This document shows, piece after piece, positions 2,291 to 19,042 of a DNA stretch of 64,000 nt (position 1 is its first letter; every line of letters starts with the position of its first letter). The DNA comes from Candidatus Saccharimonadota bacterium (GTDB taxonomy: Bacteria > Patescibacteriota > Saccharimonadia > CAILAD01 > BJGX01). Both the position numbers and the translations under genes were made by a program. The notes under the pieces were generated by a model. That model did no database searches, was not told the origin of the DNA, and worked only from the letters and a program-made list of their open reading frames with translations. The DNA lies in contig JACPPH010000004.1 in assembly GCA_016191105.1 (NCBI GenBank), forward strand, positions 65,230-129,229, in the 5' to 3' direction.

Positions 2291-2355
2291 TCCGGGCCGG
2301 GGTGAGCGATCACTCCGGCCCGGACGGGCGACCACCAAACAGGTGGTCGTTTTCA
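2291..2355 (+). terminator. Tandem hairpins closing island A (tccgggccgg...ccggcccgga, then cgaccacc-aaaca-ggtggtcg-TTTTC)
   Basis: Perfect 10-bp and 8-bp stems; the second is followed by a T-run. Confidence 0.5.
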
Positions 2356-2412
2356 GTTATTATCCAAAACTTGTTTGCATTTTATACGGCTTTGGTGGGT
2401 ATAATAGATTCT

Positions 2413-4164
2413 ATGAACGAGGTCGAAGAGGTAAAAAACAGACTCGATATTGTTGAGGTAATCGGCAGCTACGTGCCGCTCAAGCAAACCGGCCGTAACT
2501 TTAAGGGCTTGAGTCCATTTAAATCCGAGAAAACCCCTAGCTTTATTGTTAGCCCCGAAAAGAGCATTTGGCACGACTTTAGTAGCGATCAAGGCGGCGA
2601 TGTAATTAGCTTTGTTATGCTCATGGAGGGGCTGGAGTTTCGCGACGCTCTGGAGATGCTGGCTCGCCGGGCTGGGGTGACTCTAAAACTGCGCTCGGCT
2701 GCTCAAGCCCGCAATGTTGGCAAAAAAGCCAGGCTGTACGAGGCCTTAGAGCTGGCCATGAAATATTATCACCTTTGCCTGTCACGTAATGAGCATGCCC
2801 GCAGTTATTTTGTGAAAGAAAGAGGCCTTGGTGCCGCAACATTAAAACAATACAAACTAGGCTATAGCCCAGACAGCTGGGATTCTTTGACAAACTTTTT
2901 GGTCAAGCGAGGATTCACTAACGGCGAACTTAAGGAGGCTGGCTTGGTTAGCAGCAAAGCTGGCGGCAAATCTGTATTTGATAGCTTTCGTGGCCGCGTC
3001 ATGTTTCCGGTCTTCGATAGCCAGGGTAGAGTGGTTGGCTTTAGCGCCCGTTTGCTAGGAGAGGCCAAGGCAGCCAAGTACATAAACACACCGCAAACGC
3101 TGGTTTACGATAAATCGACGGCAATTTATGGCCTATACCAGGCCAAAGAATCGATCCGTAACACCGATAGCGTGGTAATTGTAGAGGGTAATGTCGATGT
3201 GCTAGCGCTCGCTAATGCCGGCTATGGCAATGCGGTGGCCAGCAGCGGCACCGCTCTAACTACGCAGCAGCTCAAAACGCTATCTTATCTAACCCACAAT
3301 GTGTACATTTGCTTCGATAGCGATAGTGCTGGGATAGCGGCCACTCAAAGGACGATTGAGTTGGCTCAAGGTATGGATATTCGTTTGCGGGTGATTGAGC
3401 TCAAAGGGGCCAAAGACCCCGACGAGCTAGTGAGTAAGAACAAACAAGCTTGGGCCGAGGCCGTGCAGAAAGCTCTGTACGCACCCGACTATTTGCTCAA
3501 GTGGGCCAAAGCTAACTTTAACTACAAAACCGCACTAGGTAAAAAACAGCTGGCCAAGTTTTTGTTGCCTATGCTTGGTGGTTTTGAAGACGAGGTGGAG
3601 CGTGATCACTACATAAAAACTATTGCCCAAACCCTAGACGTTGGTGAAAATTCGCTGCGGGAACAGCTCAATAAGACCAACAGCGACCCTAAACAGCCCA
3701 AAGCCCAGGTGGGACAAAACACACCCCAGCCAATTCGTGAGCGAAAGCTAACCAGACAAGAAAAGTTGGAGCGAGAGTTGGCTGAGCTTTTGTTGGCTAG
3801 GCCAGAAACCCGTGAAGTCTTAATCGACATAGAGCCTACCAAAATTACTGAGTTGTTTCGGCCTTACTTTGAGGCATTAATTAAAAAACCGAAGCTAACC
3901 AGCGCCGATCTCGAGAAGCAATTGCAAGATAGGGCAAATTATGGTAAAATTCTGATGTTACGGGGAGAACAAACGTATTCCGATCTGTCGGAACATGACG
4001 TAAGGGTTGAAGCCCATTCCCAAGTGTTACGCTTGCAGAATTTACAAACACAACTTAATAAGCGGTCATTGAGCAAGGCTCTAGCCGAAGCTGAAGCCGC
4101 CCACGATCAAACCAAAGCCCAAAAGATCTTAAAGAAATACCAAGCCTTACTCAACGAAGAGTAG
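2413..4164 (+). CDS. dnaG: DNA primase
   Basis: N-terminal zinc-binding region, TOPRIM region (EGNVDVLAL, FDSDSAG), ~580 aa. The start is taken at MNEVEE, ~10 nt after a TATAAT, so the mRNA may be leaderless. Confidence 0.9.
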   Translation: MNEVEEVKNRLDIVEVIGSYVPLKQTGRNFKGLSPFKSEKTPSFIVSPEKSIWHDFSSDQGGDVISFVMLMEGLEFRDALEMLARRAGVTLKLRSAAQARNVGKKARLYEALELAMKYYHLCLSRNEHARSYFVKERGLGAATLKQYKLGYSPDSWDSLTNFLVKRGFTNGELKEAGLVSSKAGGKSVFDSFRGRVMFPVFDSQGRVVGFSARLLGEAKAAKYINTPQTLVYDKSTAIYGLYQAKESIRNTDSVVIVEGNVDVLALANAGYGNAVASSGTALTTQQLKTLSYLTHNVYICFDSDSAGIAATQRTIELAQGMDIRLRVIELKGAKDPDELVSKNKQAWAEAVQKALYAPDYLLKWAKANFNYKTALGKKQLAKFLLPMLGGFEDEVERDHYIKTIAQTLDVGENSLREQLNKTNSDPKQPKAQVGQNTPQPIRERKLTRQEKLERELAELLLARPETREVLIDIEPTKITELFRPYFEALIKKPKLTSADLEKQLQDRANYGKILMLRGEQTYSDLSEHDVRVEAHSQVLRLQNLQTQLNKRSLSKALAEAEAAHDQTKAQKILKKYQALLNEE

Positions 4165-4235
4165 TTTATTAATTTGTCTTAATAATCCACATTTAAGCCT
4201 GGGAGTTTGAAACTAATTATTTGAAAGGAGTACCC

Positions 4236-5432
4236 ATGCCTCAAAAAGCCACGAGAGCTACTAAGCTTAAGGCCAACAAAAAACCTACATCCAAACCTGT
4301 GCCAAAAAAAGCACCAGCCAAAAGGCCAGCAGCCAAGAAGGCCGTTGACGACGAGGTTACAAAAGAACTGTCGCCCGAGGTAGAAAGCCTGCTTGCAAAA
4401 GGCCGCGAGCAGGGGTTTGTTACCCAACAAGAAATTATGGCTACTGTGCCCGATGCCGAGGAGCATGTCGATGCTCTCGATGATCTGTACTCGCTGTTGA
4501 TCGATCAGGGAATCGAAATTACCGATCAAAAAGACAAGCTTATCTGGGCTACCGAACCCGACGAGGACATCGAGAATGCCACTAGTGATGATTATATAAA
4601 AGATATTGCCGACGACTCAGTGCGGCTTTATCTGCGCGAGATTGGCAAGATCCCACTAATTTCGGCCGAAGAAGAGGTTGGGTTAGCCAAACGGATCGAA
4701 AAAGGCGATAAATCGGCCAAAGACGCCTTGGCCGAAGCCAACTTGCGTTTGGTGGTTAGTATTGCCAAAAAATACATTGGTCGCGGGCTCGATCTGTTAG
4801 ATCTTATAGAAGAGGGTAATACTGGCTTGTTGCGGGCAGTTGAAAAGTTCGACTACACCAAGGGCTTTAAGTTTAGCACCTATGCTACTTGGTGGATTCG
4901 CCAAGCTATAACCCGTGCCATTGCCGACCAGGCCCGGGTGATTCGCATACCGGTCCACATGGTCGAAACGATCAATAAACTTATTCGAACTCAGCGTCGA
5001 CTTACTCAAGAGCTGGGTCGCGAGCCGTTGCCCGAAGAAATCGGTACCGAAATGGAAATCGACGTTGAAAAGGTCAACCACATTCTAAAGATCTCTCAAG
5101 ACACCACCAGCTTAGATGCCACCGTAGGTGAGGACGAAGATAGCTCTTTGGGTGACTTTATTCAAGACGAAGACACCGTGAGCCCCGAAGAGGCTGCAAC
5201 TTATGAGTTGCTCAAAGAACATATCGATGACACCTTAGGTTTGCTTACGCCGCGTGAACAAAAGATTCTACGCATGCGCTTTGGGCTCGAAGACGGTCGC
5301 AGCCACACGCTTGAGGAAGTAGGCCAAGAATTTGGTGTCACTCGCGAGCGCATTCGCCAAATAGAAGCCAAAGCTTTAACCAAGCTGCGTAAACACAAAG
5401 ACAGCAAACGACTCAAAGACTACATAAGCTAA
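4236..5432 (+). CDS. rpoD: RNA polymerase primary sigma factor (sigma-70)
   Basis: Regions 1.2, 2 ([17 protein letters not shown]), 3 and 4 ([24 protein letters not shown]) are present. An AAAGGAG Shine-Dalgarno lies upstream. Confidence 0.92.
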
Positions 5433-5473
5433 CACGGAGTGTCGCCCTGAGCATAGTCGAAGGATCTGTATCT

Positions 5474-5501
5474 AAAAAGACCCTCGTATGAGGGTCTTTT
5501 T
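5474..5501. terminator. Bidirectional rho-independent terminator (aaaaagaccctc-gtat-gagggtcttttt)
   Basis: Perfect stem flanked by A-run and T-run, between convergent rpoD and the GNAT gene. Confidence 0.7.
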
Positions 5502-5549
5502 AGATCGGCAAAACCATAAGTTGCTCGGGATCTTTTTCGCCGGGTACGT

Positions 5550-6014
5550 TCATGACCTGTCGCTTTTCGAGCCAGCCTTCTCGAGCACATGCATGGAGCG
5601 AGCGTTATGAATGCTTGGACTAGCCACTATGAATTTAACATCGTGATATTTCTCTAACACCACATCCTTGGTAAACTTTATGGCTATCGCTGGCCCAAGG
5701 CCTTTGCCCAGATAACTTTCGTTGCCAATAAACCAATCCATACCTACGCTATCATTGAGTTTCACAGCTTCTGCATAATCCTTATAATCTTTAACCCAAT
5801 AAGATTGGGTCATACCAATGGGTGTATTATCTGCCACCACCACAAAGCAGCTTGTTGCACTTTTGCCTTCAACTCTAGGTCCGTATTTTTCTTCAATTGC
5901 TTCTGGTGTTGACGGCTCATGCCACCATTTTTTCACTTCGGGTGCATTCAGCCACACAGGAAACCAATCGAAATCAGCTCGAGATAAAGGACGAAAACTT
6001 ATCTTGGTATTCAT
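5550..6014 (-). CDS. GNAT-family N-acetyltransferase, AAC(6')-Ib-like
   Basis: Blocks WWHEP, IGMTQSYWV, DWFIGNESYLGKGLG and ASPSIHNARSMHVLEKAG resemble aminoglycoside 6'-N-acetyltransferase type Ib. Confidence 0.7.
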   Translation of the reverse strand: MNTKISFRPLSRADFDWFPVWLNAPEVKKWWHEPSTPEAIEEKYGPRVEGKSATSCFVVVADNTPIGMTQSYWVKDYKDYAEAVKLNDSVGMDWFIGNESYLGKGLGPAIAIKFTKDVVLEKYHDVKFIVASPSIHNARSMHVLEKAGSKSDRS

Positions 6015-6397
6015 TGATTACTAGCAGGGAGACCTTCTGGATTGGGATTTGGTGGGCGATCTGGCAGGCGTCCACGCTGCCGATCGGCCTGTTCTTGCCT
6101 TTGTCGCGCTGCTGCCAGCTTAGCGCGCGCATCGGCCTTAAGTGTTTCTCTATCAACGGCTTTATTAGTTGTGTCGTTGGCCACAGCTTCGGGATCTTGA
6201 GCCTTGCCTTGCTGGATAGCCTGCTCACTAGGTACTCTCTCGGGTCTCGCTGCAGCTTCCTGAGCTTGTCTAATATTCAACAGATCATTTTTCAGGCGCT
6301 GCTCTTTGGCATCGGGAGTTAACTGATTGCGAGCAGCTGCGCTGGCTTTCTCTGCAGTGTTCGTTTCAAATAAATTGGCTTGAGCTGGATCGTTCAT
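6011..6397 (-). CDS. Hypothetical charged/low-complexity protein
   Basis: ORF whose stop overlaps the downstream start (ATGA). No motif recognised. Confidence 0.35.
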   Translation of the reverse strand: MNDPAQANLFETNTAEKASAAARNQLTPDAKEQRLKNDLLNIRQAQEAAARPERVPSEQAIQQGKAQDPEAVANDTTNKAVDRETLKADARAKLAAARQRQEQADRQRGRLPDRPPNPNPEGLPASNQ

Positions 6398-6453
6398 ACC
6401 ATAATTAAAGCATATGCTATCTGATTATGCTATCCATCGGGTATAATAACTAC

Positions 6454-9237
6454 ATGTCCAAGCGCCCTAAATTTGTAATTTTCGATGGCCATGCCCTGGT
6501 GCATCGTGGCTATCACGCCATTCCGTATTTAACCACCAAAGATGGTACCCCCACCAACGCCGTGTTTGGCTTTGCTACTATGATGCTTTTGGCGCTGCGC
6601 GAGCTCAAGCCCGACTATGTGGCTGTAGCTTGGGATGCGCCAGGGCCCACATTCCGCCACAAACAGTTCAAAGACTACAAAGGCACCCGACAAAAGGCCG
6701 ACCAGGAGCTATACGACCAACTGCCGATTACCAAGGATCTAATTGAGGCCTTTAACATTCCGCTAATCGAGCAGGTTGGCTACGAGGCCGATGACATTAT
6801 TGGTAGCCTGGCCGAAAAGTACCGGGCGCAAGCCGATGTAGTGATTGTAACTGGTGACATGGATGAATTGCAGCTGGTGAGTGATCGCGTGAGTGTTTAT
6901 ACCATGCGCAAGGGCTTTACCGACACTGTGATTTTCGATCCCAAAATGGTGCATGAAAAATATGGTGTTACACCAGAAGAATTCGTGGTCTACAAAGCTC
7001 TCAAGGGTGATAGCAGCGACAACATTCCTGGTGTGGCCGGCATTGGCGATAAAACCGCCACCGAGCTAGTAGCCAAGTATCAATCACTCGATAACATATA
7101 CAAAAATCTCGACAATATTAGGCCAGCTGTAGTCAAAAAGCTCGAGGCCGGGCGGGAAAGCGCCTATTTGAGCCTAGATTTATCACGAATTGTGCGCGAT
7201 ATGAAGCTCGACTTTGATCTTAAGAGGGCGACAACTCACGACTTTGACCGCCAGAAGGTCTACGACCTATTCCAAAAGCTAGAGTTTAAGAGCTTGCTGG
7301 CTAAATTGCCGACACCGCCAGGTGGCAAGGGCTTGGTAGAAACCGAAACCAACAGCGAAAAGCTCGAGCGTTCACACTTGGTAAGTGCTAATTACAAGAT
7401 TGTGCAAACTGAGGCAGATTTAAAAAAATTAGTCGAGCTGCTTTCTAAAGCCAAAGTTATTTCGTTTGATACAGAGACCACCGATACCGATGTAATTAAG
7501 GCCGACTTGGTAGGCCTAAGCTTTGCGGTGCACGAGGGCGAGGCTTACTATGTGCCAGTTGGACATGTACAGACCAAGCCAGACGACATAGACTTTGTGC
7601 TTATGGCCCAAGATGCTCCAGTCGATCTGGCCGGTGGGCAATTGCCTTTGGAGCTGGTAATAAAAGCTCTCAAACCGATCTTGGAAGACCCCAAAATTGG
7701 CAAAGTTGGGCACAATATTAAGTACGACTACCAGATTATGAATCGAGCTGGCGTTAAGCTAACCCCGATTGTGTTCGACACTATGGTGGCGGCTTTTCTA
7801 ATCAACCCAATTGGGCGAGCTCAGAGCCTGACCGAGCTAGCCTATAGTGACCTAGGTATTCGCATGATCGAAATTACTGAGCTAATCGGCTCCAAGGGCA
7901 AAAACCAGCTCCACTTTGGCCAAACCGATGTCTCGCAGGCTGGCCAGTACGCTGCCGAAGACGCCGATATTGCGCTTCGTTTGTACCACAAGCTGCAAGC
8001 CGATCTTAAAAAGCTTGGTAAACTAACCGAGGTAGCTAAGACCTTCGAGTGGCCGCTTATTGAAGTGCTGGGCGATATGGAACTTACGGGCGTGACCCTC
8101 AACGTTAAGTTCTTGGCCAAATTTGCCAAACAAATTGATGGCGATATCGACAAATGCCAGAAAGCCATCTGGAAGTTGGCAGGGCAGCCGTTCAACATCA
8201 ATAGTCCTGGCCAACTTCAAGAGATTTTATTTAACACGCTCAAGATCGAAACCGCAGGACTCAAGAAGACCAAGACCGGCTATTCTACGGCAGCTAGCGA
8301 GCTCGAAAAACTGCGTGGCGTACACGATATTATTGAACATTTATTCGAGTATCGTGAACTAACTAAGCTTAAGAGCACCTATGTCGATGCCTTGCCTAAC
8401 GCTGTAGCCAAAGACGGCAAAATCCACACTAGCTACAACCAGACCATTGCCCAAACCGGCCGGCTTAATAGCACCAATCCCAACCTGCAAAATATCCCGG
8501 TTCGCACCGTCTTAGGTCGTGAAATCCGCAAGGCCTTTGTGGCCGATGAGGGCAATGTGTTGGTAAGTGCCGACTACAATCAGATAGAGCTGCGCTTGGC
8601 GGCCGCTCTAGCCGACGATAAGCCAATGATCAAGACCTTTCGTGAGCACCTGGATATTCACACCGCCACAGCAGCCGAGATGTTTGGTATTAAACCCGAA
8701 GAGGTAACTCCACAGCAACGTTATGGCGCCAAAACCATCAACTTTGGCGTGCTGTACGGCATGAGCCCGCACGGCTTGAGCGTGGCCGCCAAGCTAGATT
8801 ACGATCAAGCCAAGGAGTTTATAGACCGCTACTTTAACCTACGTAAAGGCGTGGCCGACTATATTGAAAGGATAAAGAAGTTGGCTCACAGACAACAGTT
8901 TACCGAAACCTATTTTGGTCGGCGCCGGCCCTGCCCCGATGTTAAGTCGAATAACTTTGTTATCCGCAGTGCCGCCGAGCGCGCAGCCGTGAACATGCCC
9001 TTGCAGGGTACGGCGGCCGATATGATTAAGCTGGCCATGATACGGATCCACAAAGTTTTACCCAACGGTGCCGGTATAATCTTACAGATTCACGACGAAT
9101 TGATAGTAGAATGCAAAAAATCTCAGGCCAAAGAGGTGGGCGAGATTATGAGTAAAGAAATGATAGGAGTGCACAAATTTGCGGTACCAATTGAGGTTGG
9201 GTTAAAGGTCGGCACCAGCTGGGGAGAGCTAGAGTGA
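6454..9237 (+). CDS. polA: DNA polymerase I (5'-3' exonuclease, 3'-5' exonuclease and polymerase domains)
   Basis: ~930 aa; FEN-like N-terminus, pol A motifs (DYSQIELR-like SADYNQIELR, KTINFGVLYG, QIHDELIVE). ATG lies 10 nt after a TATAAT. Confidence 0.93.
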   Translation: MSKRPKFVIFDGHALVHRGYHAIPYLTTKDGTPTNAVFGFATMMLLALRELKPDYVAVAWDAPGPTFRHKQFKDYKGTRQKADQELYDQLPITKDLIEAFNIPLIEQVGYEADDIIGSLAEKYRAQADVVIVTGDMDELQLVSDRVSVYTMRKGFTDTVIFDPKMVHEKYGVTPEEFVVYKALKGDSSDNIPGVAGIGDKTATELVAKYQSLDNIYKNLDNIRPAVVKKLEAGRESAYLSLDLSRIVRDMKLDFDLKRATTHDFDRQKVYDLFQKLEFKSLLAKLPTPPGGKGLVETETNSEKLERSHLVSANYKIVQTEADLKKLVELLSKAKVISFDTETTDTDVIKADLVGLSFAVHEGEAYYVPVGHVQTKPDDIDFVLMAQDAPVDLAGGQLPLELVIKALKPILEDPKIGKVGHNIKYDYQIMNRAGVKLTPIVFDTMVAAFLINPIGRAQSLTELAYSDLGIRMIEITELIGSKGKNQLHFGQTDVSQAGQYAAEDADIALRLYHKLQADLKKLGKLTEVAKTFEWPLIEVLGDMELTGVTLNVKFLAKFAKQIDGDIDKCQKAIWKLAGQPFNINSPGQLQEILFNTLKIETAGLKKTKTGYSTAASELEKLRGVHDIIEHLFEYRELTKLKSTYVDALPNAVAKDGKIHTSYNQTIAQTGRLNSTNPNLQNIPVRTVLGREIRKAFVADEGNVLVSADYNQIELRLAAALADDKPMIKTFREHLDIHTATAAEMFGIKPEEVTPQQRYGAKTINFGVLYGMSPHGLSVAAKLDYDQAKEFIDRYFNLRKGVADYIERIKKLAHRQQFTETYFGRRRPCPDVKSNNFVIRSAAERAAVNMPLQGTAADMIKLAMIRIHKVLPNGAGIILQIHDELIVECKKSQAKEVGEIMSKEMIGVHKFAVPIEVGLKVGTSWGELE

Positions 9238-9665
9238 ACAATGTAAACTTACGGGTTGCTGCCAAGGCTGTAATTGCATACAAAAACAAGGTATTGGTGG
9301 TGCGCGAGGGCGGCAAATATGAAGATGGCAACAATATTGGCCAGTATGGCCTGGTGGGCGGCAGAATAGAACCCGACGAGTCGTTTTACGATGCTCTGGA
9401 CCGTGAGATCTTAGAGGAGACGGGGCTTAAGGTTAAGACTACTAAGCCACTACAAGTAGGTGAGTGGTGGCCAGAGATCAAGGGCGTTAAAAACCACATT
9501 GTGGCTGTATTCATGATCTGTGAAGCCAAGACAGATAGGGTTGTGTTAAGCGATGAGCACGATGATTTTAAGTGGGTTAATCTGAACGAAATACAAAAGC
9601 TGCCGGTCATGGAACCAGATAGATCAGTTGCTATTGAGTTTTTAAGCTCTCTCCCAAAAACCTGA
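9234..9665 (+). CDS. NUDIX hydrolase
   Basis: NUDIX box GGRIEPDESFYDALDREILEETGL. The C-terminal codons LPKT* fall inside the shared island left-end motif. Confidence 0.8.
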   Translation: MNNVNLRVAAKAVIAYKNKVLVVREGGKYEDGNNIGQYGLVGGRIEPDESFYDALDREILEETGLKVKTTKPLQVGEWWPEIKGVKNHIVAVFMICEAKTDRVVLSDEHDDFKWVNLNEIQKLPVMEPDRSVAIEFLSSLPKT

Positions 9666-9730
9666 CATTGTCATCTCGAGCGTAGTCGAGAGATCTCGGA
9701 TCTTAGGGAGAGCGACAATCACGGAGGTTG
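9651..9730. repeat. Left-end junction motif of island B (ctcccaaaaacctRa ... gatcttNgggagaNcgacaaYc)
   Basis: Homologous to 13071-13116. Contains the inverted repeat ctctccc/gggagag. Confidence 0.55.
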
Positions 9731-9741
9731 GCGAAAGCACT

Positions 9742-9960
9742 CTACCGAGCCAGAGGTGGCTCTTCGTGAACACCTCCTTGAGGGTATGGTCGTGGTGAGG
9801 GTGGTTGGGCGGTGCAGCGGTCGAGCAGTACTACGAATACGCTGGCGATGAGGCCTAAGCATATGAGTAGCCAAAAGCCCTTCCATATGCCCCGAAGCAT
9901 GTCTCCAAGGCAGCCCATGTCAGTAGTGGCAGTTGGGGTCGTCGTAGACCACGTTGCCAT
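9742..9960 (-). CDS. Small membrane protein, island B
   Basis: 72 aa with a hydrophobic helix. Its ATG abuts the TAA of the upstream 57-aa ORF. Confidence 0.35.
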   Translation of the reverse strand: MATWSTTTPTATTDMGCLGDMLRGIWKGFWLLICLGLIASVFVVLLDRCTAQPPSPRPYPQGGVHEEPPLAR

Positions 9961-10134
9961 TTACGACTTGGCTAGAGGAGTAGTCGCCTTGCACTCCTTA
10001 ACGCGCTGACGAGCTCCAAGCATCGCCAGAACCATCAGTATTGCACCGATGGTTAAGAAGATGATGATCAAGATTCTGAGTCGCCTGCGATAGATCGCGT
10101 TTAACTCAGCTTCATTATGGGCATGCGCCTCCAT
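9961..10134 (-). CDS. 57-aa single-TM protein (MEAHAHNEAELNAIYRRRLRILIIIFLTIGAILMVLAMLGARQRVKE...), island B
   Basis: Not in the supplied ORF table because it is under 60 aa. GAAGGAG Shine-Dalgarno 7 nt upstream. Homologous to the 48-aa ORF at 13180-13326 (shared AI-RRRL plus an Ile-run TM). Confidence 0.35.
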   Translation of the reverse strand: MEAHAHNEAELNAIYRRRLRILIIIFLTIGAILMVLAMLGARQRVKECKATTPLAKS

Positions 10135-10185
10135 GAATCACTCCTTCTTGGTGATTGTCGGGTTGCGGGATATCGAACTGACATC

Positions 10186-10231
10186 CTCCCAAACAATTTA
10201 ACACGTTAAACTGTTTGGGAGAACGACAACC
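10186..10231. repeat. 17-bp inverted repeat (ctcccaaacaatttaac / gttaaactgtttgggag) followed by aacgacaacc; internal copy of the island junction motif
   Basis: Seen directly. The same tttgggagaacgacaacc string occurs at 13098-13116. Confidence 0.6.
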
Positions 10232-10274
10232 ATACTTTGCATTGCGCTCCCTCCGGGCAGGTGCCGGAATTGTG

Positions 10275-10823
10275 CTACATGCTTGGGCAACGCGGGGGAC
10301 AGCGACCGGGCTCACAACAGCCTTGGTCAGGGTCTTGACTCGCATCTTTGCCAGCAGGCCGGCAGTTGGTACTGTCGCAGGCTCCTGGCTCGGGCACTGA
10401 TCCTGGCGGGACCGTGCCCCGATCAGATACTCCAGGAACCGTGGCGGGTGGGATGCAGGGAGGCGTGGGGTCTTGGATGCAGTAGCGCGGTGGCACCACA
10501 TCGCAGTTGCCTCGTGCCTCGCATACCACCGCCGGGTTGTTGAACACGCTCGAGCATTTGCTACCAGGATCCAGCTTCCTTGGATCGCCCTCGGTCATAG
10601 GCGGGCAGCCTCGCACATCCGGGATGGTGCCACCGAAGTGGGGGGAAACCACTGTCGTCTTCGATGGCGGGCACGGGTCGTTGGGCCCGTAGAACACCAC
10701 ATTGCCGCTGACCTGATCGGGCGGGCAGATGGTCTTGGTAGGGGCGCTGTCGTTCGGACCGGCCTGGCCGGTGCAAGAGGCGGCAGCCAGGATGAACGGG
10801 ATGAGTATCGGTAGGCGCTTCAT
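10275..10823 (-). CDS. Cys/Pro-rich lipoprotein (signal MKRLPILIPFILAAASC)
   Basis: Lipobox-like LAAASC, about 20 Cys and many Pro. An AAAGGGG Shine-Dalgarno precedes the ATG at 10823. High GC. Confidence 0.5.
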   Translation of the reverse strand: MKRLPILIPFILAAASCTGQAGPNDSAPTKTICPPDQVSGNVVFYGPNDPCPPSKTTVVSPHFGGTIPDVRGCPPMTEGDPRKLDPGSKCSSVFNNPAVVCEARGNCDVVPPRYCIQDPTPPCIPPATVPGVSDRGTVPPGSVPEPGACDSTNCRPAGKDASQDPDQGCCEPGRCPPRCPSM

Positions 10824-10956
10824 GTGAGCACCCCTTTCGTGAGTAGTATGGTTGTCGATTGTAAAGGTAGAGGAATGCTCCTCCCCTAAACACTCATTCG
10901 CTGGAGAGCGAATTAAGTACTTGGGGGAGGCCCCATCCACCTTTCGGTGGAAAGGA

Positions 10957-11499
10957 CTACCCTGGAATTTGTGGTGGACCGACTACTTCGTCGTAGGTGT
11001 CGGGCGTGAGCCAGGGCTCCACGATGATGACGCCGCCGGTGTTGCGGTGTCGAGCCAAGTTCATGATCGCAACTTCCAGCTGTTCGGTATCACGCATGTA
11101 GCCGATCGAGCTGAACAGGCATGTCACCACATCGAAGAACGACGGGTTGCGGTCAAGGAAGCCCGGGGTACTCAAGCTGAAGGTGAGCATGTCGGCACAG
11201 ATCAAGTTGACCTCTGGCAGGCGCTTGCGAGCCATCTCGAGCTGTTGGGGAGACAGGTCAATGCCGACCACCTTGCTGAACCAGGCGGCGAGATGCTGCA
11301 GGTGCAGGCCAGTGCCGCAGGCCACGTCGAGCAAGCTCATGTCACGAGGGTGCTTGCCGGTCCTTTGCTCGGCGATTTCGAGCACTCGGCTGGCCTCGAC
11401 GCTGTAGTCCTTGAGGCTCTCATAGAGAGTGTCGTACCAGACCGCCGAGTGGGTGTAGGCAGTCATGTCTTCGGTTGTATCCATATTGGTGTTGGTCAT
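10957..11499 (-). CDS. Class I SAM-dependent methyltransferase
   Basis: Motif I LDVACGTGLH. An acidic loop and motif IV-like region follow. High GC. GGAG Shine-Dalgarno. Confidence 0.7.
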   Translation of the reverse strand: MTNTNMDTTEDMTAYTHSAVWYDTLYESLKDYSVEASRVLEIAEQRTGKHPRDMSLLDVACGTGLHLQHLAAWFSKVVGIDLSPQQLEMARKRLPEVNLICADMLTFSLSTPGFLDRNPSFFDVVTCLFSSIGYMRDTEQLEVAIMNLARHRNTGGVIIVEPWLTPDTYDEVVGPPQIPG

Positions 11500-11551
11500 G
11501 TCAAAACTCCAGGGATCGGGTTGCTAGCCTATGCCAGCAACGTGTAGCAAG

Positions 11552-11580
11552 ATATTATAATAAAAGCTATATAAAGTCAA
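11552..11580 (-). promoter_or_regulatory. Sigma70-type promoter for the leftward island B operon (TTGACT-N17-TAATAT), overlapping a divergent TTGACT on the plus strand
   Basis: Read on the minus strand. Homologous to the island C promoter (TTGACWTWMTATAGCTYTT). Confidence 0.45.
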
Positions 11581-11640
11581 TAGTCTTGACTGGTTCGTTG
11601 TACAGCTAAAAGTAAAGCCCATTTCAGGTATAATGTTGCT

Positions 11641-12522
11641 ATGCCAGAGCTACCAGAGGTCGAAACAGTTCGAACAGGATTACAGCAGTTCTTGGTGGGC
11701 CAGACCATCCAAGCGGTGGCTTTTGATTGGCTTAAAAGCTTCCCAAACGACAAAAACCAAGTTGATAAATTCGTAATAAAAGCTGAAATTACATCTGTAA
11801 AGCGCCGCGCCAAGGTGTTATTGCTCGATTTAAACACAGGCTACACACTCATGGTGCATCTCAAAATGACCGGCCAGATGGTGTATCGGCCCAAAGAGGG
11901 TGAGGGCTTTGGTGGTGGGCATCCGTCAGATAGCCTAATAAGTAAATTACCAGATAAATCTACCCGAGTAACTTTTACGCTAAACCGCGGCAAGTTGTTT
12001 TTTAACGACCAGCGTAAATTTGGCTGGATTAAACTAAAAAAGACCGCCGATCTAGTTAGTGACGAGTTTTTGAGCAAACTTGGCCCAGAACCACTCGAGG
12101 ATAGCTACACATTTGAACAGTTTAAGGCTGCAATACAAAGAAGGCAAAAAACCAGCATAAAAGCTGCCATTTTAGATCAGACAGTTCTGGCCGGGGTGGG
12201 TAATATTTATGCCGATGAGAGCCTATTTGCAGCCCGAATTCACCCAGCCACCCTGGTGAAAGATGTTAGCAGCATAAAGTTAAAGCGGCTCTACAATGCC
12301 ATTCGCGAAGTCATGAACTTAAGCATTCGCTTAGGTGGCAGTAGCGATCGCAATTATGTCGATGCTCAAGGAAAAAAGGGTAGTTACCTTAAATTCGCCA
12401 AGGTTTTCAGAAGAGATGGGCAAGAATGCCCGGAATGTGGGGGCAAGATTGTAAAAATTCGTGTGGCTGGCCGCGGCACGCACATTTGCCCCAAATGCCA
12501 GAAATTGCCGAGGAAAAGGTGA
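11641..12522 (+). CDS. mutM: Formamidopyrimidine-DNA glycosylase
   Basis: N-terminal MPELPEVE, H2TH region, C-terminal zinc finger CPECGGK...CPKCQ. Confidence 0.92.
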   Translation: MPELPEVETVRTGLQQFLVGQTIQAVAFDWLKSFPNDKNQVDKFVIKAEITSVKRRAKVLLLDLNTGYTLMVHLKMTGQMVYRPKEGEGFGGGHPSDSLISKLPDKSTRVTFTLNRGKLFFNDQRKFGWIKLKKTADLVSDEFLSKLGPEPLEDSYTFEQFKAAIQRRQKTSIKAAILDQTVLAGVGNIYADESLFAARIHPATLVKDVSSIKLKRLYNAIREVMNLSIRLGGSSDRNYVDAQGKKGSYLKFAKVFRRDGQECPECGGKIVKIRVAGRGTHICPKCQKLPRKR

Positions 12523-13085
12523 GGTATTACTTCGGTGGCGCCAACGGCAGTGGTAAATCTACGTTAGTGTCGAGAATAGTAAAGCAAAAACAAGAGTTCA
12601 TACCTTTTAAAGGCGCCACCGAACTCATGGAGGCCTTGGGCATACCTGGTGATTACGACAAGCTTAGGGCTATGGATCACTCAGTAACTACCGCCGCGTT
12701 TGGAAAGCTGGTTCAGGAGCAATCAAAAAAACACCGAAACCTAATAATCGACGCACACTACATGAACCTTAAACACGGTAAGTTTTATCCGGTTTGGGGC
12801 GACTGGCTTAGCTCGGTTGATGCTCTGGTGTTGGTAGAAGCACCTGCCAGCGCTATATTGGAGCGAATAGAACTCGATCCAAGTAAAGACAGGGCTCTGT
12901 TCCCGGCCGGGGCTACAGAAAAGCAAAAACTGAGCCTACTAAAAGCTTTGATCAGCACCAGCAAAGATGTGTTTTTGGACTGCGCAAACCAATACAACAA
13001 AAAGAGCTTGATTATTGAAAATACCGACCCAACTAAAGCTCTAGATAAGTTTATTAAATTTGATTTTAATCTCCCAAAAACCTAA
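12495..13085 (+). CDS. P-loop NTPase (Walker A GGANGSGKST), function unclear
   Basis: The start is placed at MPEIAEE, so it overlaps the fpg 3' end. The C-terminal codons NLPKT* lie in the shared island left-end motif. Confidence 0.55.
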   Translation: MPEIAEEKVRYYFGGANGSGKSTLVSRIVKQKQEFIPFKGATELMEALGIPGDYDKLRAMDHSVTTAAFGKLVQEQSKKHRNLIIDAHYMNLKHGKFYPVWGDWLSSVDALVLVEAPASAILERIELDPSKDRALFPAGATEKQKLSLLKALISTSKDVFLDCANQYNKKSLIIENTDPTKALDKFIKFDFNLPKT

Positions 13086-13116
13086 ATTATTTTAGATCTT
13101 TGGGAGAACGACAACC
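13071..13116. repeat. Left-end junction motif of island C (ctcccaaaaacctaa ... gatctttgggagaacgacaacc)
   Basis: Homologous to 9651-9730. Inverted repeat ctcccaaa/tttgggag. Confidence 0.55.
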
Positions 13117-13179
13117 TTCGTCGAAACACCCCCGGCGACGCACTATGGAAGTGCGTATCTTATGGTGCCGGTATGTTGA

Positions 13180-13326
13180 CTATCCGGTGACCCGCTTCTT
13201 CGCGAGTTTGATGACGAACTCGAGAAGCAGGGCGCCGGAGAGGGCGAGGCCGAACGTGGAGACGATGATGATTATGTACTCATCGCTCTCATTCAGCCTC
13301 CGGCGAATCGCACGAACGGGGTTCAT
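13180..13326 (-). CDS. 48-aa single-TM protein (MNPVRAIRRRLNESDEYIIIIVSTFGLALSGALLLEFVIKLAKKRVTG), island C
   Basis: Under 60 aa. A GTGAGGTG Shine-Dalgarno overlaps the stop of the upstream ORF. Homologous to the 9961-10134 ORF. Confidence 0.35.
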   Translation of the reverse strand: MNPVRAIRRRLNESDEYIIIIVSTFGLALSGALLLEFVIKLAKKRVTG

Positions 13327-13335
13327 CGAATCACC

Positions 13336-13641
13336 TCACTTGTGGTAGTTGCGGTGAGGGTTGACAGCAGCGATGAACGGGACGGCGACTGCGGCCAAGA
13401 GCGCCACAATCAGGCCCATCACACGGTCACGTACCTCGAACTGCTGATCGAGTGCCACGTAGGCACCGAGCACGATCGAAGCGACAGAGAGAACGAGAAG
13501 GCCGTAGCACCAGATAATGCGATTGCCAACTTCATCTGTGTCCATCGTGTCGAGGATTCGTGCGCGAATCCTCTGGCTGGTGGCGTCGTCGAGCTCTGGT
13601 CCTCCGCTGCGGAAATCCCGCAGGGGATCCAAATCATCCAT
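13336..13641 (-). CDS. 101-aa membrane protein, island C
   Basis: Two hydrophobic segments. GGAGG Shine-Dalgarno. High GC. Confidence 0.4.
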   Translation of the reverse strand: MDDLDPLRDFRSGGPELDDATSQRIRARILDTMDTDEVGNRIIWCYGLLVLSVASIVLGAYVALDQQFEVRDRVMGLIVALLAAVAVPFIAAVNPHRNYHK

Positions 13642-13729
13642 GGGTTGACCTCCAGGGTCGTGGAATGGTTGTCATTTGGTTGTCGAAGGTCGCTCTGGGC
13701 GGTTGCCCAAAGGACCAGCGAACCTGAAC

Positions 13730-13758
13730 ATAGTACCATAAGAGCTATAGTATGTCAA
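13730..13758 (-). promoter_or_regulatory. Sigma70-type promoter for island C (TTGACA-N17-TACTAT)
   Basis: Read on the minus strand. Shares tatagct spacer sequence with the island B promoter. Confidence 0.45.
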
Positions 13759-13787
13759 GGCGCGCGTTTTAAGCTATAATTAAGGCT

Positions 13788-14720
13788 ATGATTTTCTACT
13801 TTTATGGTGACAACAGTTTTGCCATGCGCCAGCAGATTGAGGCCATTCGAGCCCGATACAGCAAAAAAGCTGGTGGTGAGCTGGAGTTAGAACGCTTGGA
13901 TATGGCAGAGGCCAAGGCCGAAGACCTATTGGATTCGCTGGGTGTTATGCCCATGTTTGCAACTAGTCGATTGGTGATTGCATACAATTTTTCTGCAAAC
14001 CCTACATTGCTCGAAAAGTTTCAAGACGTGGTGGAGGCTGCGGTGGAGCCGACCATTTTGGTGATTGGCGACTCCAAACCCGACAAGCGTTCGCGAGCTT
14101 TTAAAGCGTTATCTAAATTGCCGCAGGCCAAAGAATTTACGGCCATTACACCTGGAGAACTGCAAACTTGGGCCCGGCTTACCGCCAAAAAACTAGGTGC
14201 CGAACTCGATGCGCGCACAGCTAGTTTGCTAATTGAGCGGGTCGGGCATGATCAATGGCAGCTGCACCAAGAGCTCCAAAAACTGGCTAGTTATAACAGC
14301 AAAATCACTCCCGGGTCGATCGATGAGTTGGTAGTGCCGAATCATGAACAAACAATTTTTCAACTCATAGATGCCGTGGCTCAGCACAAAACCGCCAGAG
14401 CACTAGAATTGTACAAGCGCTTGAGCCTAGATGGTGTGGCCGATCAGCAAGTTTTGGCAATGCTGAACTGGCAATATCGAAACTTGGTGATCGCCAAAGA
14501 CAACCAAGGCGGCGAGTTGGCTTGGGCGCGCGACTTTGGCATAGCACCATTTGCGGCCAACAAAGCCGTTGGCCAAGCTCGAGAGCTCGAAATGACTGAC
14601 CTGCGAACGGCCTACGCCCAGATTGTGTCGGCAGATTTTGCCATTAAAACCGGCGCCAAACCATCGGCCCTGGCGCTCGAACAGCTGCTGGTTGAGCTTA
14701 GCTTAGCCGAACAACCCTAA
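13788..14720 (+). CDS. holA: DNA polymerase III delta subunit
   Basis: Size and N-terminal block (FYFYGDNSFAMRQQIEAIRARY) resemble HolA. Replication-gene context. Confidence 0.65.
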   Translation: MIFYFYGDNSFAMRQQIEAIRARYSKKAGGELELERLDMAEAKAEDLLDSLGVMPMFATSRLVIAYNFSANPTLLEKFQDVVEAAVEPTILVIGDSKPDKRSRAFKALSKLPQAKEFTAITPGELQTWARLTAKKLGAELDARTASLLIERVGHDQWQLHQELQKLASYNSKITPGSIDELVVPNHEQTIFQLIDAVAQHKTARALELYKRLSLDGVADQQVLAMLNWQYRNLVIAKDNQGGELAWARDFGIAPFAANKAVGQARELEMTDLRTAYAQIVSADFAIKTGAKPSALALEQLLVELSLAEQP

Positions 14721-14797
14721 AGCTTGTAATTTTTGATTTTGCAGGTATGATTAGCTGGTAATATTCACGTGTCACAACCTTTAAGGAGGTGAGAGCG

Positions 14798-15034
14798 GTG
14801 AGTGAATGGCGTACCAAATATGAGGATCCGACGACCAAGGGCTACCAGCTTCATTTCCTCGGTGAGGAAGGGGATGGGTGGACAGTCATCGAGATGCACA
14901 ATGGCACGAACGCCTGTGTCCCTGGTGGCAGGTGCGACGATCTCTGGCTCGAGTTCGACACGTCTGAGGGGGCGCTAGATCGAGCCAAGCTGGCAGTTCA
15001 GCAAGCAAGACAAGCTCAGGAGGCGGAATCATGA
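14798..15034 (+). CDS. Hypothetical protein, island D ORF1
   Basis: GTG start 8 nt after AAGGAGG. An extended -10 promoter (TGGTAATAT) lies upstream. High GC. Confidence 0.35.
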   Translation: MSEWRTKYEDPTTKGYQLHFLGEEGDGWTVIEMHNGTNACVPGGRCDDLWLEFDTSEGALDRAKLAVQQARQAQEAES

Positions 15035-15258
15035 TTTTGTTTGGATGGCGCACCGAAAGGATCGATAAGGCCGGGATGTGGTTGCACACCAAACCTGGCG
15101 TGGGTCGTGTCGAAGAGAACTACAACGGCACCGGCTGTTATCCAATCAGTGCTACTGGCGGGCCCCTACTGCCGCCAGGTGAGAAGTTGACCGGTGCGTT
15201 TGCTCTGTTGCGCGCCAAGCATATGGTTGAGACCAACGTCAATCAGTTTTACGGCTGA
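15031..15258 (+). CDS. Hypothetical protein, island D ORF2
   Basis: ATGA overlap with ORF1. AGGAGG lies inside the upstream coding sequence. Confidence 0.35.
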   Translation: MILFGWRTERIDKAGMWLHTKPGVGRVEENYNGTGCYPISATGGPLLPPGEKLTGAFALLRAKHMVETNVNQFYG

Positions 15259-15276
15259 GCCGCCACAGTGGCATTT

Positions 15277-15319
15277 AAGCCCGAAGGAAGGAGCTTTCCC
15301 TCGGGCTTCTTCTATTTTT
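15277..15319 (+). terminator. Rho-independent terminator of island D (aagcccga...tcgggctt + T-run)
   Basis: Stem-loop followed by cttctattttt. Confidence 0.6.
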
Positions 15320-15495
15320 AGTAAAAATTTTTAGGCTTTTGAATCTAGCGAGCATTTTCGTATGCTACAATTAATTTGAAATTGGTGGCCAACCTTTAGG
15401 AGGGTGGGCCATCACCGAACCCAAAACAAAAGGAGGTTGCGTAGGGATTACTGGCAAGCGGGAAAGCTGCTTTTAGAGAAAGCAGAGGTGACGGC

Positions 15496-15747
15496 ATGGC
15501 AACATTCGCAATCGAACGAAAGCAAGAAGAGGGCTTCGGGGTTTCGACCCTGACTGTGCTAAAGAGCGGCAGGCCATGGGCACGCATTACCTCGCTGGTG
15601 AGCGGGGAAGTGTGCAGCGTGTTCATTCCGCCAGACTCCGAGACCATGGTCAACGACAAGCCACTCCGGGAGCAGGAGGCCATTGACCTGGCCAAGGCCT
15701 TCAAGTATCCCCGGCAGAAGAAGCGGAAACAGCCAAAGGCGGCGTAA
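15496..15747 (+). CDS. Hypothetical basic protein, island E
   Basis: GAGGTGA Shine-Dalgarno. A promoter TTGAAT...TGCTACAAT (extended -10) sits ~140 nt upstream. High GC. Confidence 0.35.
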   Translation: MATFAIERKQEEGFGVSTLTVLKSGRPWARITSLVSGEVCSVFIPPDSETMVNDKPLREQEAIDLAKAFKYPRQKKRKQPKAA

Positions 15748-15820
15748 CGCATCTCTTCGTTGGCGGACATAAGCGGGTCTGAGGGTGTGGTCCTCTCGGA
15801 CCCACTCTCATTTATAATCA

Positions 15821-15851
15821 AAAACCACTCATGCTTACTCGAGTGGTTTTT
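15821..15851. terminator. Bidirectional terminator (aaaaccactc-N10-gagtggtttt) between island E and rpsT
   Basis: Perfect 10-bp stem with A-run and T-run flanks. Confidence 0.7.
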
Positions 15852-15858
15852 GAGTAAT

Positions 15859-16257
15859 TTACTTGTTTGGTTTAGCGGCTGGCTTCTTAGCCGGGGCTTT
15901 TTTGGCAGTTGTTTTAGCTGCCGGTTTCTTAGCGGTTGCTTTTTTGGCGCCAGGCTTGCCTGTCCGCTGTCCAGCGGATTCGGTGCCGAAGGGCTTGGCA
16001 GCAGCGGCATTGTAAGCCTTAGTTAGGCGAGACTTACGGCGGGCAGCTGTGCCCTTATGGAGCACGCCCTTCTTAACGGCTCGGTCTACCTCGGCAATGG
16101 CAGCAATCAGAGCTTTGCTGTCTTTAGGGCTACCGCTCAAGATTTCGGTGCGCACGACCTTGAATTTCTTCTTTACCGCAACCTTAACCGCCACATTGCG
16201 CTGGTTGCGCTTTTTGGCTTGGCGGTCACGTTTGATTGCTGATTTGATAATAGGCAT
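15859..16257 (-). CDS. rpsT: 30S ribosomal protein S20 with a Lys/Ala-rich C-terminal extension
   Basis: N-terminus MPIIKSAIKRDRQAKKRNQRN is typical of S20. Confidence 0.85.
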   Translation of the reverse strand: MPIIKSAIKRDRQAKKRNQRNVAVKVAVKKKFKVVRTEILSGSPKDSKALIAAIAEVDRAVKKGVLHKGTAARRKSRLTKAYNAAAAKPFGTESAGQRTGKPGAKKATAKKPAAKTTAKKAPAKKPAAKPNK

Positions 16258-16729
16258 AGCGCTCAGTATACCGCATTAAGGCCCATCTGTAAAGAACCGC
16301 GTAGTGGCAAGTGCAAGTATAGAATGCTACTAAGCTTTTGTGCGTCTAGTGCTGGCGGGGAGAGGTGGGGCTAGCGCTCAGTTGAACTCCTCCAAACCAC
16401 CGGCAAAAGTCGAACCACACAACTGCCTGCCCTCTTTGCTTCCGTGGATCGGGAGATGACCCAGGGATAGAGGGGTCCGCATATCAGACGGCCAACAAGG
16501 AGGTGATCCATGACTCGCAATCGTGGATCCACCACTGCTGTCATCTCTTCCGCACAGGAGATCGGCTTCTAGGCCAGCGCCTACTGAAGTCGCAAGACAG
16601 TAATACCAACGGGCATAGCCGCTGCGGTGAACGCCCTGACCGCATCCATCGAGCGCTCAACCATCGCCTGCGTTGAGTGCTTATCACGACGAACTCGAGT
16701 GCCGCACCCCAGCTCTCGAACGGGACTAC

Positions 16730-16766
16730 GCCCCCGGCCGTAAGGCCGGGGGCTACCCATTTTTGT
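16730..16766 (+). terminator. Strong rho-independent terminator (gcccccggcc-gtaa-ggccgggggc + ttttt) closing high-GC segment G
   Basis: 10-bp GC stem plus T-run. Confidence 0.65.
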
Positions 16767-16801
16767 TGAAAATTTTTGACACTCTGGCTTATAATAAAAC
16801 C

Positions 16802-17221
16802 ATGAATCTAGAGCTTGCAGCTCAACTACAAAACATCAGCCTAACCGACAAACAGGCTAGAGTTTACATTGCATCTCTATCTTTGGGGCCAAACAGTGCC
16901 CAAAACATTGCCAAAGCAGCAGATGTAAATCGGGCCACCACCTATGTAATCATTGAAGAACTTATGGGTATGGGCCTTGTGACGCAGAGCGAAAAGAGCA
17001 AGCGCACGGTATTTGTAGCCGCACCACCAAGTGCAATCAAACAGTACCTCGAAGATGTCAAAACAGATTTACAGAATAAGATTGACGAACTAGAGAAGCT
17101 ACAGCCACAACTTGAAAAGTTGTCTACCCCAACGGATCTAGAGCACCTAAAGAGACAAATCATCCAGAGTCTTAACCAGGCTGAGATTGAACGGCTGATA
17201 GCAGAACTCCAGAAGTCCTAA
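16802..17221 (+). CDS. TrmB-like wHTH transcriptional regulator
   Basis: N-terminal HTH LTDKQARVYIASLSLGPNSAQNIAKAADVNRATTYVIIEELMGMGLV and a coiled-coil C-terminus. The start is 10 nt after a TATAAT. Confidence 0.6.
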   Translation: MNLELAAQLQNISLTDKQARVYIASLSLGPNSAQNIAKAADVNRATTYVIIEELMGMGLVTQSEKSKRTVFVAAPPSAIKQYLEDVKTDLQNKIDELEKLQPQLEKLSTPTDLEHLKRQIIQSLNQAEIERLIAELQKS

Positions 17222-17325
17222 GGCAGGCACAAGAGTCACCAAAGAGCTTGACAAAAGTACTTACGTTTGGTATAATTGCACATTGTCTAAATTAGAACCG
17301 TTAAATCAGTTCCAACCAAATCATT

Positions 17326-18429: not shown

Positions 18430-18455
18430 TCTGTTCTCCAATCCGACATTCTCCC

Positions 18456-18893: not shown

Positions 18894-19042
18894 CTACAGA
18901 TTCAATCTTCGCTGTTCGCTAGTCAGCGAAAGCGAATTGTTGAACGCTCCTTGCTATTGCCTGCATTCTTGCGGGCAATCTGATGAGAAATTTTGAAATC
19001 TAAATAGTCAGCCCACCACAACTTCGCCCTTAGGAGGCAATC

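Follow-up and report, generated by a model that had tools for sequence, protein, structure and literature searches.

A truncated methyltransferase gene and putative orphan envelope genes with matched flanking boxes between polA and fpg of a Candidatus Saccharibacteria genome

The fold of the DesVI-type methyltransferases consists of a seven-stranded core and an auxiliary domain that the N-terminal helix forms with the linker between strands beta5 and beta6, and distant relatives of the same fold, EftM among them, methylate proteins (bioRxiv 10.1101/773556). Pairing between the 5' and 3' untranslated regions (UTRs) is known in the icaR mRNA of S. aureus (PMC3868564) and in the hbs mRNA of B. 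subtilis (PMC5737220). Here we compare both systems with a GC-rich segment (positions 9742-11580) of a 64,000-nt stretch of DNA, hereafter the window, in which a first-pass annotation had seen a single operon of a methyltransferase, a Cys/Pro-rich lipoprotein and two tiny membrane proteins. We propose with moderate confidence that the segment is made up not of one operon but of three neighbouring transcription units, namely the remnant of a methyltransferase gene and two units of orphan envelope genes (A and B), whose matched boxes would pair between the 5' and 3' ends of each messenger.

The four co-directional minus-strand open reading frames (ORFs) of the annotation are indeed present, and so is the island in which they lie, with a GC fraction of 0.58-0.67 over positions 9,740-11,500 against a mean of 0.48 for the window. 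The actinobacterial setting that had been assumed has to be given up: the lipoprotein is identical to NCBI HYX70_02210, from a metagenome-assembled genome (MAG) of a Candidatus Saccharibacteria bacterium, so the setting is a genome from the candidate phyla radiation (CPR/Patescibacteria), with 48% GC. An independent Logan assembly (L001, run SRR12113392) is 100% identical to window positions 275-18,598. On one side, the segment is bordered by polA and a NUDIX gene, and on the other by fpg, a P-loop kinase-like (AAA_17) gene and holA; the order polA ... fpg ... holA is kept in all eight related syntenic loci that we compared (compared sequences are given L numbers below). The GC content at third codon positions (GC3) reaches 0.63-0.80 in the island genes, against about 0.5 for core genes of the same contigs. 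Since orthologues are present in independent assemblies and pairwise dN/dS values of the island genes are 0.18-0.33, these genes are real and constrained. No integrase or transposase was found near the units in the window neighbourhood, and a tRNA scan found nothing.

The methyltransferase unit comprises the following features:

11552..11580, minus strand: sigma-70-like promoter (TTGACT-17-TAATAT, overlapping TATAAT), resembling the promoters of the island units in L002 and L003
11520..11541, minus strand: leader hairpin of the methyltransferase mRNA (GTTGCTGGC..GCTAGCAAC), read from the sequence
10957..11499, minus strand: 3'-truncated gene (METHYLTRANSFERASE) of a class I S-adenosylmethionine (SAM) methyltransferase of the TylM1/DesVI family, 180 aa
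10880..10951, minus strand: two hairpins past the methyltransferase stop codon, fold z-score -6.1

The leaders of L002 and L003 carry a GTTGCGAGC..GCTTGCAGC hairpin in the equivalent position, and the second of the two downstream hairpins (10930-10880) is homologous to the terminator region that follows the methyltransferase gene of L002.

The class I assignment made from the motif LDVACGTGLH holds (Methyltransf_25, E 2e-15), with the qualification that the gene has lost its 3' part. A phmmer search of the PDB with the window protein returned DesVI (3BXO, E 1.4e-29) and TylM1 (3PFG, E 2.6e-25), followed by CalS10 (6UK5), in matches that start near chain residue 10 and reach only residues ~149-158 of 239-263. 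Full-length orthologues, on the other hand, have 265 aa, and one of them aligns with the solved relatives along its whole length (E 5e-49). When the 265-aa orthologue of L002 was used as the query, 5,506 homologues were retrieved at E<=1e-10, nearly all of 233-265 aa, while the window protein spans only 64% of this query. In the alignment it stops after VEPWLTPDTYDE, past beta5, with the junction near 10,985, and ends in a 9-residue unrelated tail, whereas all other aligned methyltransferases run on for ~95 conserved residues. No remnant of the missing C-terminus was found in any frame of the whole window by tblastn, and the 23 nt just past the window stop codon are 96% identical to L002 9027-9049, just past the stop codon of the L002 gene; this match points to an internal deletion, not a rearrangement.

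What the window protein shares with TylM1 and DesVI (3PFG, 3BXO), and with CalS10 (6UK5), is motif I (LLDVACGTG), the FSSIGY segment and VEPW. Two SAM-binding features are invariant in the alignment, LLDVACGTG (D58...G64) and G-x-D-L/V-S (with D81, the acidic residue at the end of beta2), and the truncated protein retains the DxxCGxG form of motif I. Unlike the solved enzymes, it ends after beta5, and by the fold description it would be without the beta5/6 auxiliary, substrate-binding sheet and without core strands beta6 and beta7; the complete core and auxiliary domain are found in orthologues P0003, P0004 and P0005, not in the window protein. With some 95 C-terminal residues lost, the methyltransferase is therefore probably inactive, and most likely a remnant.

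Two further traits distinguish the Saccharibacteria enzymes from TylM1 and DesVI. The Saccharibacteria/CPR proteins carry an insert of ~9 residues (S/T-x-PGFLGxNPxF; window region 11160-11190) that DesVI, TylM1 and most of the remaining homologues lack. In addition, no dTDP-amino-sugar pathway genes, such as those of a 4,6-dehydratase, an aminotransferase or a glycosyltransferase, adjoin the methyltransferase in the window or in L002-L005, where the immediate neighbourhood only was checked. We also observed that the synonymous divergence of the methyltransferase gene (pS 0.52, window 10957-11499 against L002 8179-8976) is clearly below the values for polA and fpg on either side (0.77-0.80), a difference that would fit strong GC3 codon bias or a more recent exchange of island genes between lineages.

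Unit A, next in the direction of transcription, is organized around the lipoprotein gene:

10845..10857, minus strand: 5' box A (CGACAACCATACT), 22 nt ahead of the lipoprotein start codon, in the leader
10275..10823, minus strand: Cys/Pro-rich lipoprotein gene, 182 aa, lipobox AAAS/C
10224..10236, minus strand: 3' box A (AGTATGGTTGTCG), exact reverse complement of 5' box A
10185..10223, minus strand: conserved hairpin T_A of 17-20 bp between the lipoprotein and 57-aa genes, terminator-like or a stabiliser

Like other bacterial lipoproteins (substrates of Lgt and LspA), the protein starts with a positively charged n-region and a hydrophobic h-region that lead to the lipobox (MKRLPILIPFILAAAS/C), whose cysteine is invariant in 8/8 family members. 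The length of 182 aa, the lipobox and the richness in proline (35 residues) had been described correctly, while the count of about 20 cysteines was too high, the protein having 15. Unlike the usual lipoproteins, the mature part belongs to an orphan family of eight members, with more than 1.8e9 representatives searched. No match was found in Pfam or NCBIfam; a word-indexed search of 5.8e9 proteins gave a single relative, P0002 (51% identity, with 70% of the query covered), a profile search of the same size returned only the five input sequences, and an exhaustive HMMER scan of 1.84e9 representatives yielded seven family proteins in total. In these large protein searches, neither the lipoprotein nor the transmembrane proteins of unit B had homologues outside the few related genomes.

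The family has in common the lipobox and a ~90-residue Cys-containing core (G-T-C-K-I...F-N-D...C-P), which is modelled as a small alpha/beta domain with a predicted local distance difference test (pLDDT) score of ~80. Unlike the rest of its own family, the window copy has no such core, and what it has in common with P0002 is only the variable N-terminal Cys/Pro-rich region. The AlphaFold2 model of the window protein is unusable (pLDDT 45.6). That of the family member P0123 (pLDDT 56.3, core ~80) has no significant fold match in the PDB (best E 0.03, TM score <=0.37); the weak OmpA-like and RidA-like resemblances of the latter were accordingly rejected.

Unit B contains the small membrane-protein genes:

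10151..10160, minus strand: 5' box B (CGACAATCAC), directly upstream of the 57-aa gene's Shine-Dalgarno sequence
9961..10134, minus strand: ORF of a 57-aa single-pass membrane protein, a frameshifted (+2 nt) copy
9920..9958, minus strand: lost C-terminus of the 57-aa gene, out of frame (GNVVYDDPNCHY, then a stop codon)
9742..9918, minus strand: 58-aa single-pass membrane protein (ATG at 9918, MGCLGD...), the ORF being open from 9960
9713..9722, minus strand: 3' box B (GTGATTGTCG), complementary to 5' box B
9649..9712, minus strand: hairpin T_B, found by folding, which ends the unit and overlaps the stop codon of the convergent NUDIX gene

The 57-aa ORF and its transmembrane segment are as annotated (one strong segment, 3.1 in a 19-residue Kyte-Doolittle window), and the gene proves to be a frameshifted copy of a longer one: its orthologues have 64 aa in L002 and 81 aa in L003, and both end in G-x-x-R-Y-D-N-P-S-C-H. 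The window has GNVVYDDPNCHY and its stop codon in another frame because of a 2-nt insertion, near 9,975, relative to L002 and L003. The second ORF had been taken as a 72-aa membrane protein. The reading frame is there (9960..9742), while its first 14 codons are owed to the frameshift; its ATG, at 9960, was created directly past the premature stop codon, and the conserved product, from the ATG at 9918, has 58 aa, orthologous to 49-aa proteins of L005, L029 and L030 (compare MKGCL... in L005 and L029). The small proteins gave no meaningful match in Pfam, NCBIfam, PADLOC or PHROGs.

Comparison of the related loci shows which genes are kept together. In L002 and in L003/L004, a full-length methyltransferase gene is divergent from fpg and is followed by an opposite-strand gene with winged helix-turn-helix (wHTH) and NUDIX domains, past which come the lipoprotein and a transmembrane gene in L002 and the transmembrane gene alone in L003. 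L005 likewise has the methyltransferase divergent from fpg, then a 200-aa lipoprotein and membrane proteins of 71, 79, 49, 97 and 62 aa, and L006 resembles it, with the methyltransferase followed by lipoprotein and/or small transmembrane genes. In L029 and L030-L032, the lipoprotein precedes proteins of 80, 49, 129 and 46 aa and the methyltransferase is absent, while in the more distant CPR contigs L007-L009 the methyltransferase lies in unrelated contexts. Thus, lipoprotein and small-membrane-protein units recur in the polA-fpg slot of the relatives; the methyltransferase is present, separated or absent, and therefore not an obligatory partner. The lipoprotein and transmembrane genes form a conserved cluster, of which the methyltransferase is an optional neighbour. 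The gene set is thus non-standard, as had been claimed, and conserved in a few genomes, though not as a methyltransferase-centred operon of four genes. The wHTH-NUDIX gene between the methyltransferase and envelope units (235 aa; L002 9072-9779, L003 4777-5484) differs from the 143-aa NUDIX gene that adjoins polA in the window (9234-9665).

The relatives also reveal a common plan of these units. Each opens with a promoter close to consensus (TTGAC(A/T)...TTTTATGGTAATAT) together with a leader hairpin. A 5' box follows ~15-25 nt before the start codon, reading CGACAACC... in lipoprotein and C-type units (the third type, described below) and CGACAATC... in transmembrane units; past the last stop codon comes its reverse complement and then, at once, a hairpin of 17-20 bp (TCTCCCAAAG...CTTTGGGAGA) whose stem shows compensatory changes in five pairs. 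Since the units of the relatives each have their own promoter, and conserved hairpins stand between the genes, we read the units as separate. In the window, unlike the relatives, no promoter-like site was seen ahead of the lipoprotein unit or ahead of the transmembrane unit. Across the deletion, the window and L005 were compared by motif and BLAST, a global MAFFT alignment being uninformative.

To describe the boxes, we assembled 17 units from seven loci, three of them from the window and 14 from L002, L003, L005, L026, L029 and L030. In 16 of the 17, the 5' box and the 3' box of the same unit pair over 8-15 contiguous nt. The pairing is specific to the type of unit, running over 11-13 nt for A with A and 10-15 for B with B, against 6-9 for A with B, and it extends to matched sub-variants (CGGCAACCATAC/GTATGGTTGCCG in L002; ...CCAAC/GTTGG... 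in L029 and L030). Paired cells amount to 84.5%, against 75% in shuffles (a value reached by 0 of 500), and the covariation score is 0.253 against 0.112 (again 0/500), with seven pairs changed on both sides; controls in slid registers had 17-58% of cells paired. One pairing, that of L026 A2, includes a G-U wobble. The units therefore carry matched, covarying flanking boxes. The motif GACAACC is not enriched over the whole window (10 observed, ~8 expected), which marks it as a local feature of the units, not as a genome-wide signal.

The 3' end is the most conserved part of the plan. An element of ~70 nt, made up of the GGTTGTCG box and the hairpin, keeps 93-97% identity between genomes in which the flanking genes have only 65-70%; window 13,136-13,067 and L002 6,675-6,743, for example, agree at 97%, with polA and fpg at only 65-70%. 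Every GC-rich unit has the element at its 3' end, often where two genes converge, and further copies occur at window 10185-10236 and 9649-9722, at L002 10729-10786 and at L003 1723-1789 and 2804-2870. Intrinsic terminators and REP-like hairpins share with it the gene-end stems of 17-20 bp, the frequent location between convergent genes and the compensatory stem changes. However, 97% conservation over 70 nt, far above the 65-70% of the neighbouring genes, sets the element apart from both; most of its copies have no clear U-tract, and it is always preceded by a GGTTGTCG/GATTGTCG box. Rfam 15 gave 0 matches in the whole window at the gathering threshold, and a MIR473 match (E 0.25) was spurious, reflecting hairpin T_B. 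In a scan of JGI metagenomes, the 19-nt core of the element was met at nine loci, all chance matches in unrelated coding regions and without the hairpin.

The similarity to icaR and hbs lies in a segment of the 5' leader, near the Shine-Dalgarno sequence, that is complementary to the 3'-UTR; here the complement stands just upstream of the terminal hairpin, and the two covary. Unlike icaR and hbs, the architecture is repeated, with a separate matched pair for each of at least three paralogous types of unit, and the box that would pair lies beside the Shine-Dalgarno sequence instead of including it.

Taken together, these observations suggest the following picture. The variable GC-rich slot between polA/NUDIX and fpg would hold three units. 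The methyltransferase unit would have its own promoter, leader hairpin and terminator, and in this genome would have lost its last ~95 codons; unit A would encode a predicted membrane-anchored Cys/Pro-rich lipoprotein, reduced here to its variable N-terminal region; and unit B would encode small single-pass membrane proteins, the first of them frameshifted here. Together with a unit C across fpg, units A and B would make up an envelope gene set that is confined to these genomes and occurs whether or not the methyltransferase is there. The lipobox and the transmembrane segments suggest that these products are most likely surface or envelope proteins of an epibiont, so that an envelope or surface role stays the best guess, and the methyltransferase drops out as a member. 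In the window itself the cluster is probably decaying, because the methyltransferase is truncated, the lipoprotein core is lost, the 57-aa gene is frameshifted and the promoters of A and B are missing. Both boxes would lie on one RNA and pair there, controlling stability or translation: each mRNA would close on itself, tuning its own stability and/or ribosome access.

A more general version of this proposal, which we put forward only tentatively, is that the GC-rich units flanking fpg are lineage-specific, self-contained expression modules whose mRNAs are looped by unit-specific pairing of the 5'- and 3'-UTRs. A module would run from the promoter through leader hairpin, 5' box, ORF(s) and 3' box to the highly conserved hairpin. 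Such modules would give the orphan envelope proteins of epibiotic Saccharibacteria, lipoproteins and micro-membrane proteins alike, a post-transcriptional control circuit of their own; we know of no description of such a 5'/3'-pairing circuit in Patescibacteria.

Several points weigh against our preferred reading of three separate, partly decayed units. The truncated methyltransferase keeps its SAM-binding half intact and its dN/dS is still 0.33 over long timescales, while the argument for decay is built on a few relatives. The frameshift comes from one read set (SRR12113392) and could be a consensus error or one variant of a population. Genes that have no promoter of their own could be expressed by read-through, given hairpins without clear U-tracts. 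As for the boxes, C-type units are complementary only in an 8-nt core and one unit (L026 A1) has a mismatch; the complementarity could instead be a DNA-level inverted repeat, either an operator pair or recombination sites, a role that we consider less likely. Finally, the envelope role is read from the lipobox and transmembrane segments, the structure models being poor (pLDDT 45.6 and 56.3).

Of the competing explanations, the closest to the first-pass annotation is a functional four-gene operon under one promoter, whose methyltransferase would modify the lipoprotein or an envelope component in concert with the small membrane partners. It explains why all four ORFs are co-directional, why the single detectable sigma-70-like promoter lies upstream of the methyltransferase and why L005 and L006 also place the methyltransferase ahead of lipoprotein and/or small transmembrane genes. 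However, the enzyme is truncated ahead of its substrate-binding domain and is followed by its own conserved terminator-like hairpin, L029-L032 keep the other genes without it, and an opposite-strand gene splits it from the rest in L002 and L003; moreover, it is a cytoplasmic enzyme in a family whose characterised members act on dTDP-amino sugars. We thus regard this operon as largely refuted, and the common promoter as not established in view of the hairpins between the genes and the per-unit promoters of the relatives. In large part, what we find is a methyltransferase of a widespread type that is not tied to the small membrane genes, the very outcome that the annotation had named as speaking against its proposal. 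Its other suggestion, a conflict system, would make the cluster an anti-phage defence built around the methyltransferase. The sole support is a PADLOC match of the SAM-binding region to mad2 (E 3e-15), which extends over no more than the generic Rossmann part (positions 288-394 of the 492 in the profile); PADLOC has no match for the other nine proteins, PHROGs likewise gives only generic SAM-domain matches, the closest solved structures are sugar N-methyltransferases and not DNA methyltransferases, and no nuclease or ATPase partner is present. This leaves a defence system effectively refuted and the least probable of all. A phage lysis cassette, with a holin and a Pro-rich lipoprotein spanin, was also rejected, there being no endolysin, no PHROG match and a syntenic position in the core genome.

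A foreign origin is unlikely too, if the least improbable of these alternatives: the GC-rich units would be foreign or mobile cassettes, either acquired from a donor of high GC content (an actinobacterial host, for example) or moved as cassettes between the inverted repeats CGACAAYC / GRTTGTCG. The high GC3 (0.63-0.80 against about 0.5 in core genes), the varying unit content among relatives, the inverted repeats that flank each unit and a methyltransferase pS (0.52) below that of polA and fpg (0.77-0.80) would all fit, as would the natural competence of Saccharibacteria, which are epibionts of Actinobacteria (PMC10633639). Yet lineages with a polA of only 65-70% DNA identity have the units in the same slot, which makes the units old residents, and no integrase or transposase is nearby. 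Nor was a donor found outside the CPR: a contig scan with the full-length methyltransferase gave only relatives of 26-44% identity, in Abditibacteriaceae, Actinomycetota, Chloroflexi and Trueperaceae, together with one weak Paenibacillus match, and no further members of this genome group, the best six (39-44%) being spread over several phyla, and the lipoprotein and transmembrane proteins have no homologues beyond these few related genomes. The repeats, besides, sit inside the duplicated promoter-to-hairpin unit and not at its ends, and the G-U wobble that preserves the pairing of L026 A2 is relevant to RNA, not DNA. Integron cassettes with attC-like sites were rejected on related grounds, namely no integrase, near-perfect hairpins, syntenic unshuffled units and, again, repeats inside the duplicated unit. 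The boxes of unit B raise one more possibility. In hok mRNA, 5'/3' pairing through the fold-back inhibition (fbi) element keeps the message inert, and the complementarity of unit B resembles it. A hok-like type I toxin-antitoxin or small-toxin locus, silenced in this way, would account for single-pass hydrophobic proteins of 49-80 aa and for 10-15 nt of 5'/3' complementarity adjoining the Shine-Dalgarno sequence. However, the same boxes bracket a lipoprotein gene of 180-230 aa and units of four to five genes, so the box architecture is not toxin-specific; the genes are syntenic and single-copy, they have no PADLOC or PHROG match, and no antisense promoter was identified, although no search aimed at antisense RNA was made. 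We consider a toxin locus improbable, slightly more so than the four-gene operon.

As originally stated, then, the finding is largely ordinary, a broken gene of a common enzyme adjoining orphan CPR envelope genes, and the flanking-box architecture is its only feature that merits follow-up. The lipoprotein and micro-membrane genes are genuine, under purifying selection and known from only about eight related Saccharibacteria genomes, among billions of proteins searched. Envelope genes confined to few genomes are the kind expected behind host attachment in epibiotic CPR bacteria. To our knowledge, almost nothing is known about gene regulation in the phylum of Saccharibacteria, and covarying 5' and 3' boxes beside a near-invariant hairpin provide a concrete, testable hypothesis of control at the mRNA level. 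Genetic tools for the phylum are now available (PMC10633639). The locus also advises caution, in that co-directionality and GC content alone do not justify inferring operons or "systems".

Beyond fpg, between the kinase-like gene and holA, the window contains a third unit with the same architecture:

13067..13758, minus strand: unit C as a whole
13758-13730, minus strand: promoter
13685-13667, minus strand: 5' box
13641-13336, minus strand: 101-aa transmembrane protein with a charged N-terminus (MDDLDPLRDFRS...) and C-terminal transmembrane segments
13326-13180, minus strand: 48-aa transmembrane ORF
13116-13070, minus strand: 3' box (13095-13116) and hairpin

The L002 orthologue of the 101-aa protein is 55% identical. 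No family assignment was obtained for the unit C proteins (13180-13641).

Elsewhere in the window, another GC-rich island (0.58-0.61) at 19000-21100 contains orphan ORFs of 137, 121 and 203 aa; these have no Pfam match, and the island is without the box and hairpin architecture. It is followed by a GIY-YIG domain gene at 21216-21530 (E 6e-20). A GC-rich ORF at 46074-46712 encodes a Thr/Pro-rich protein of 212 aa that has no match in Pfam and carries a hydrophobic, signal-like segment at its N-terminus. Adjoining it, at 47330-49735, is the gene of an 801-aa protein with an N-terminal signal-like segment and only a sub-threshold CBM60-like match, and both may be further surface proteins. Downstream of holA, a small GC-rich ORF of 81 aa (14789-15034), with no match in Pfam, is weakly conserved by tblastn (E 1e-4) in L002 (84 aa) and L005 (123 aa).

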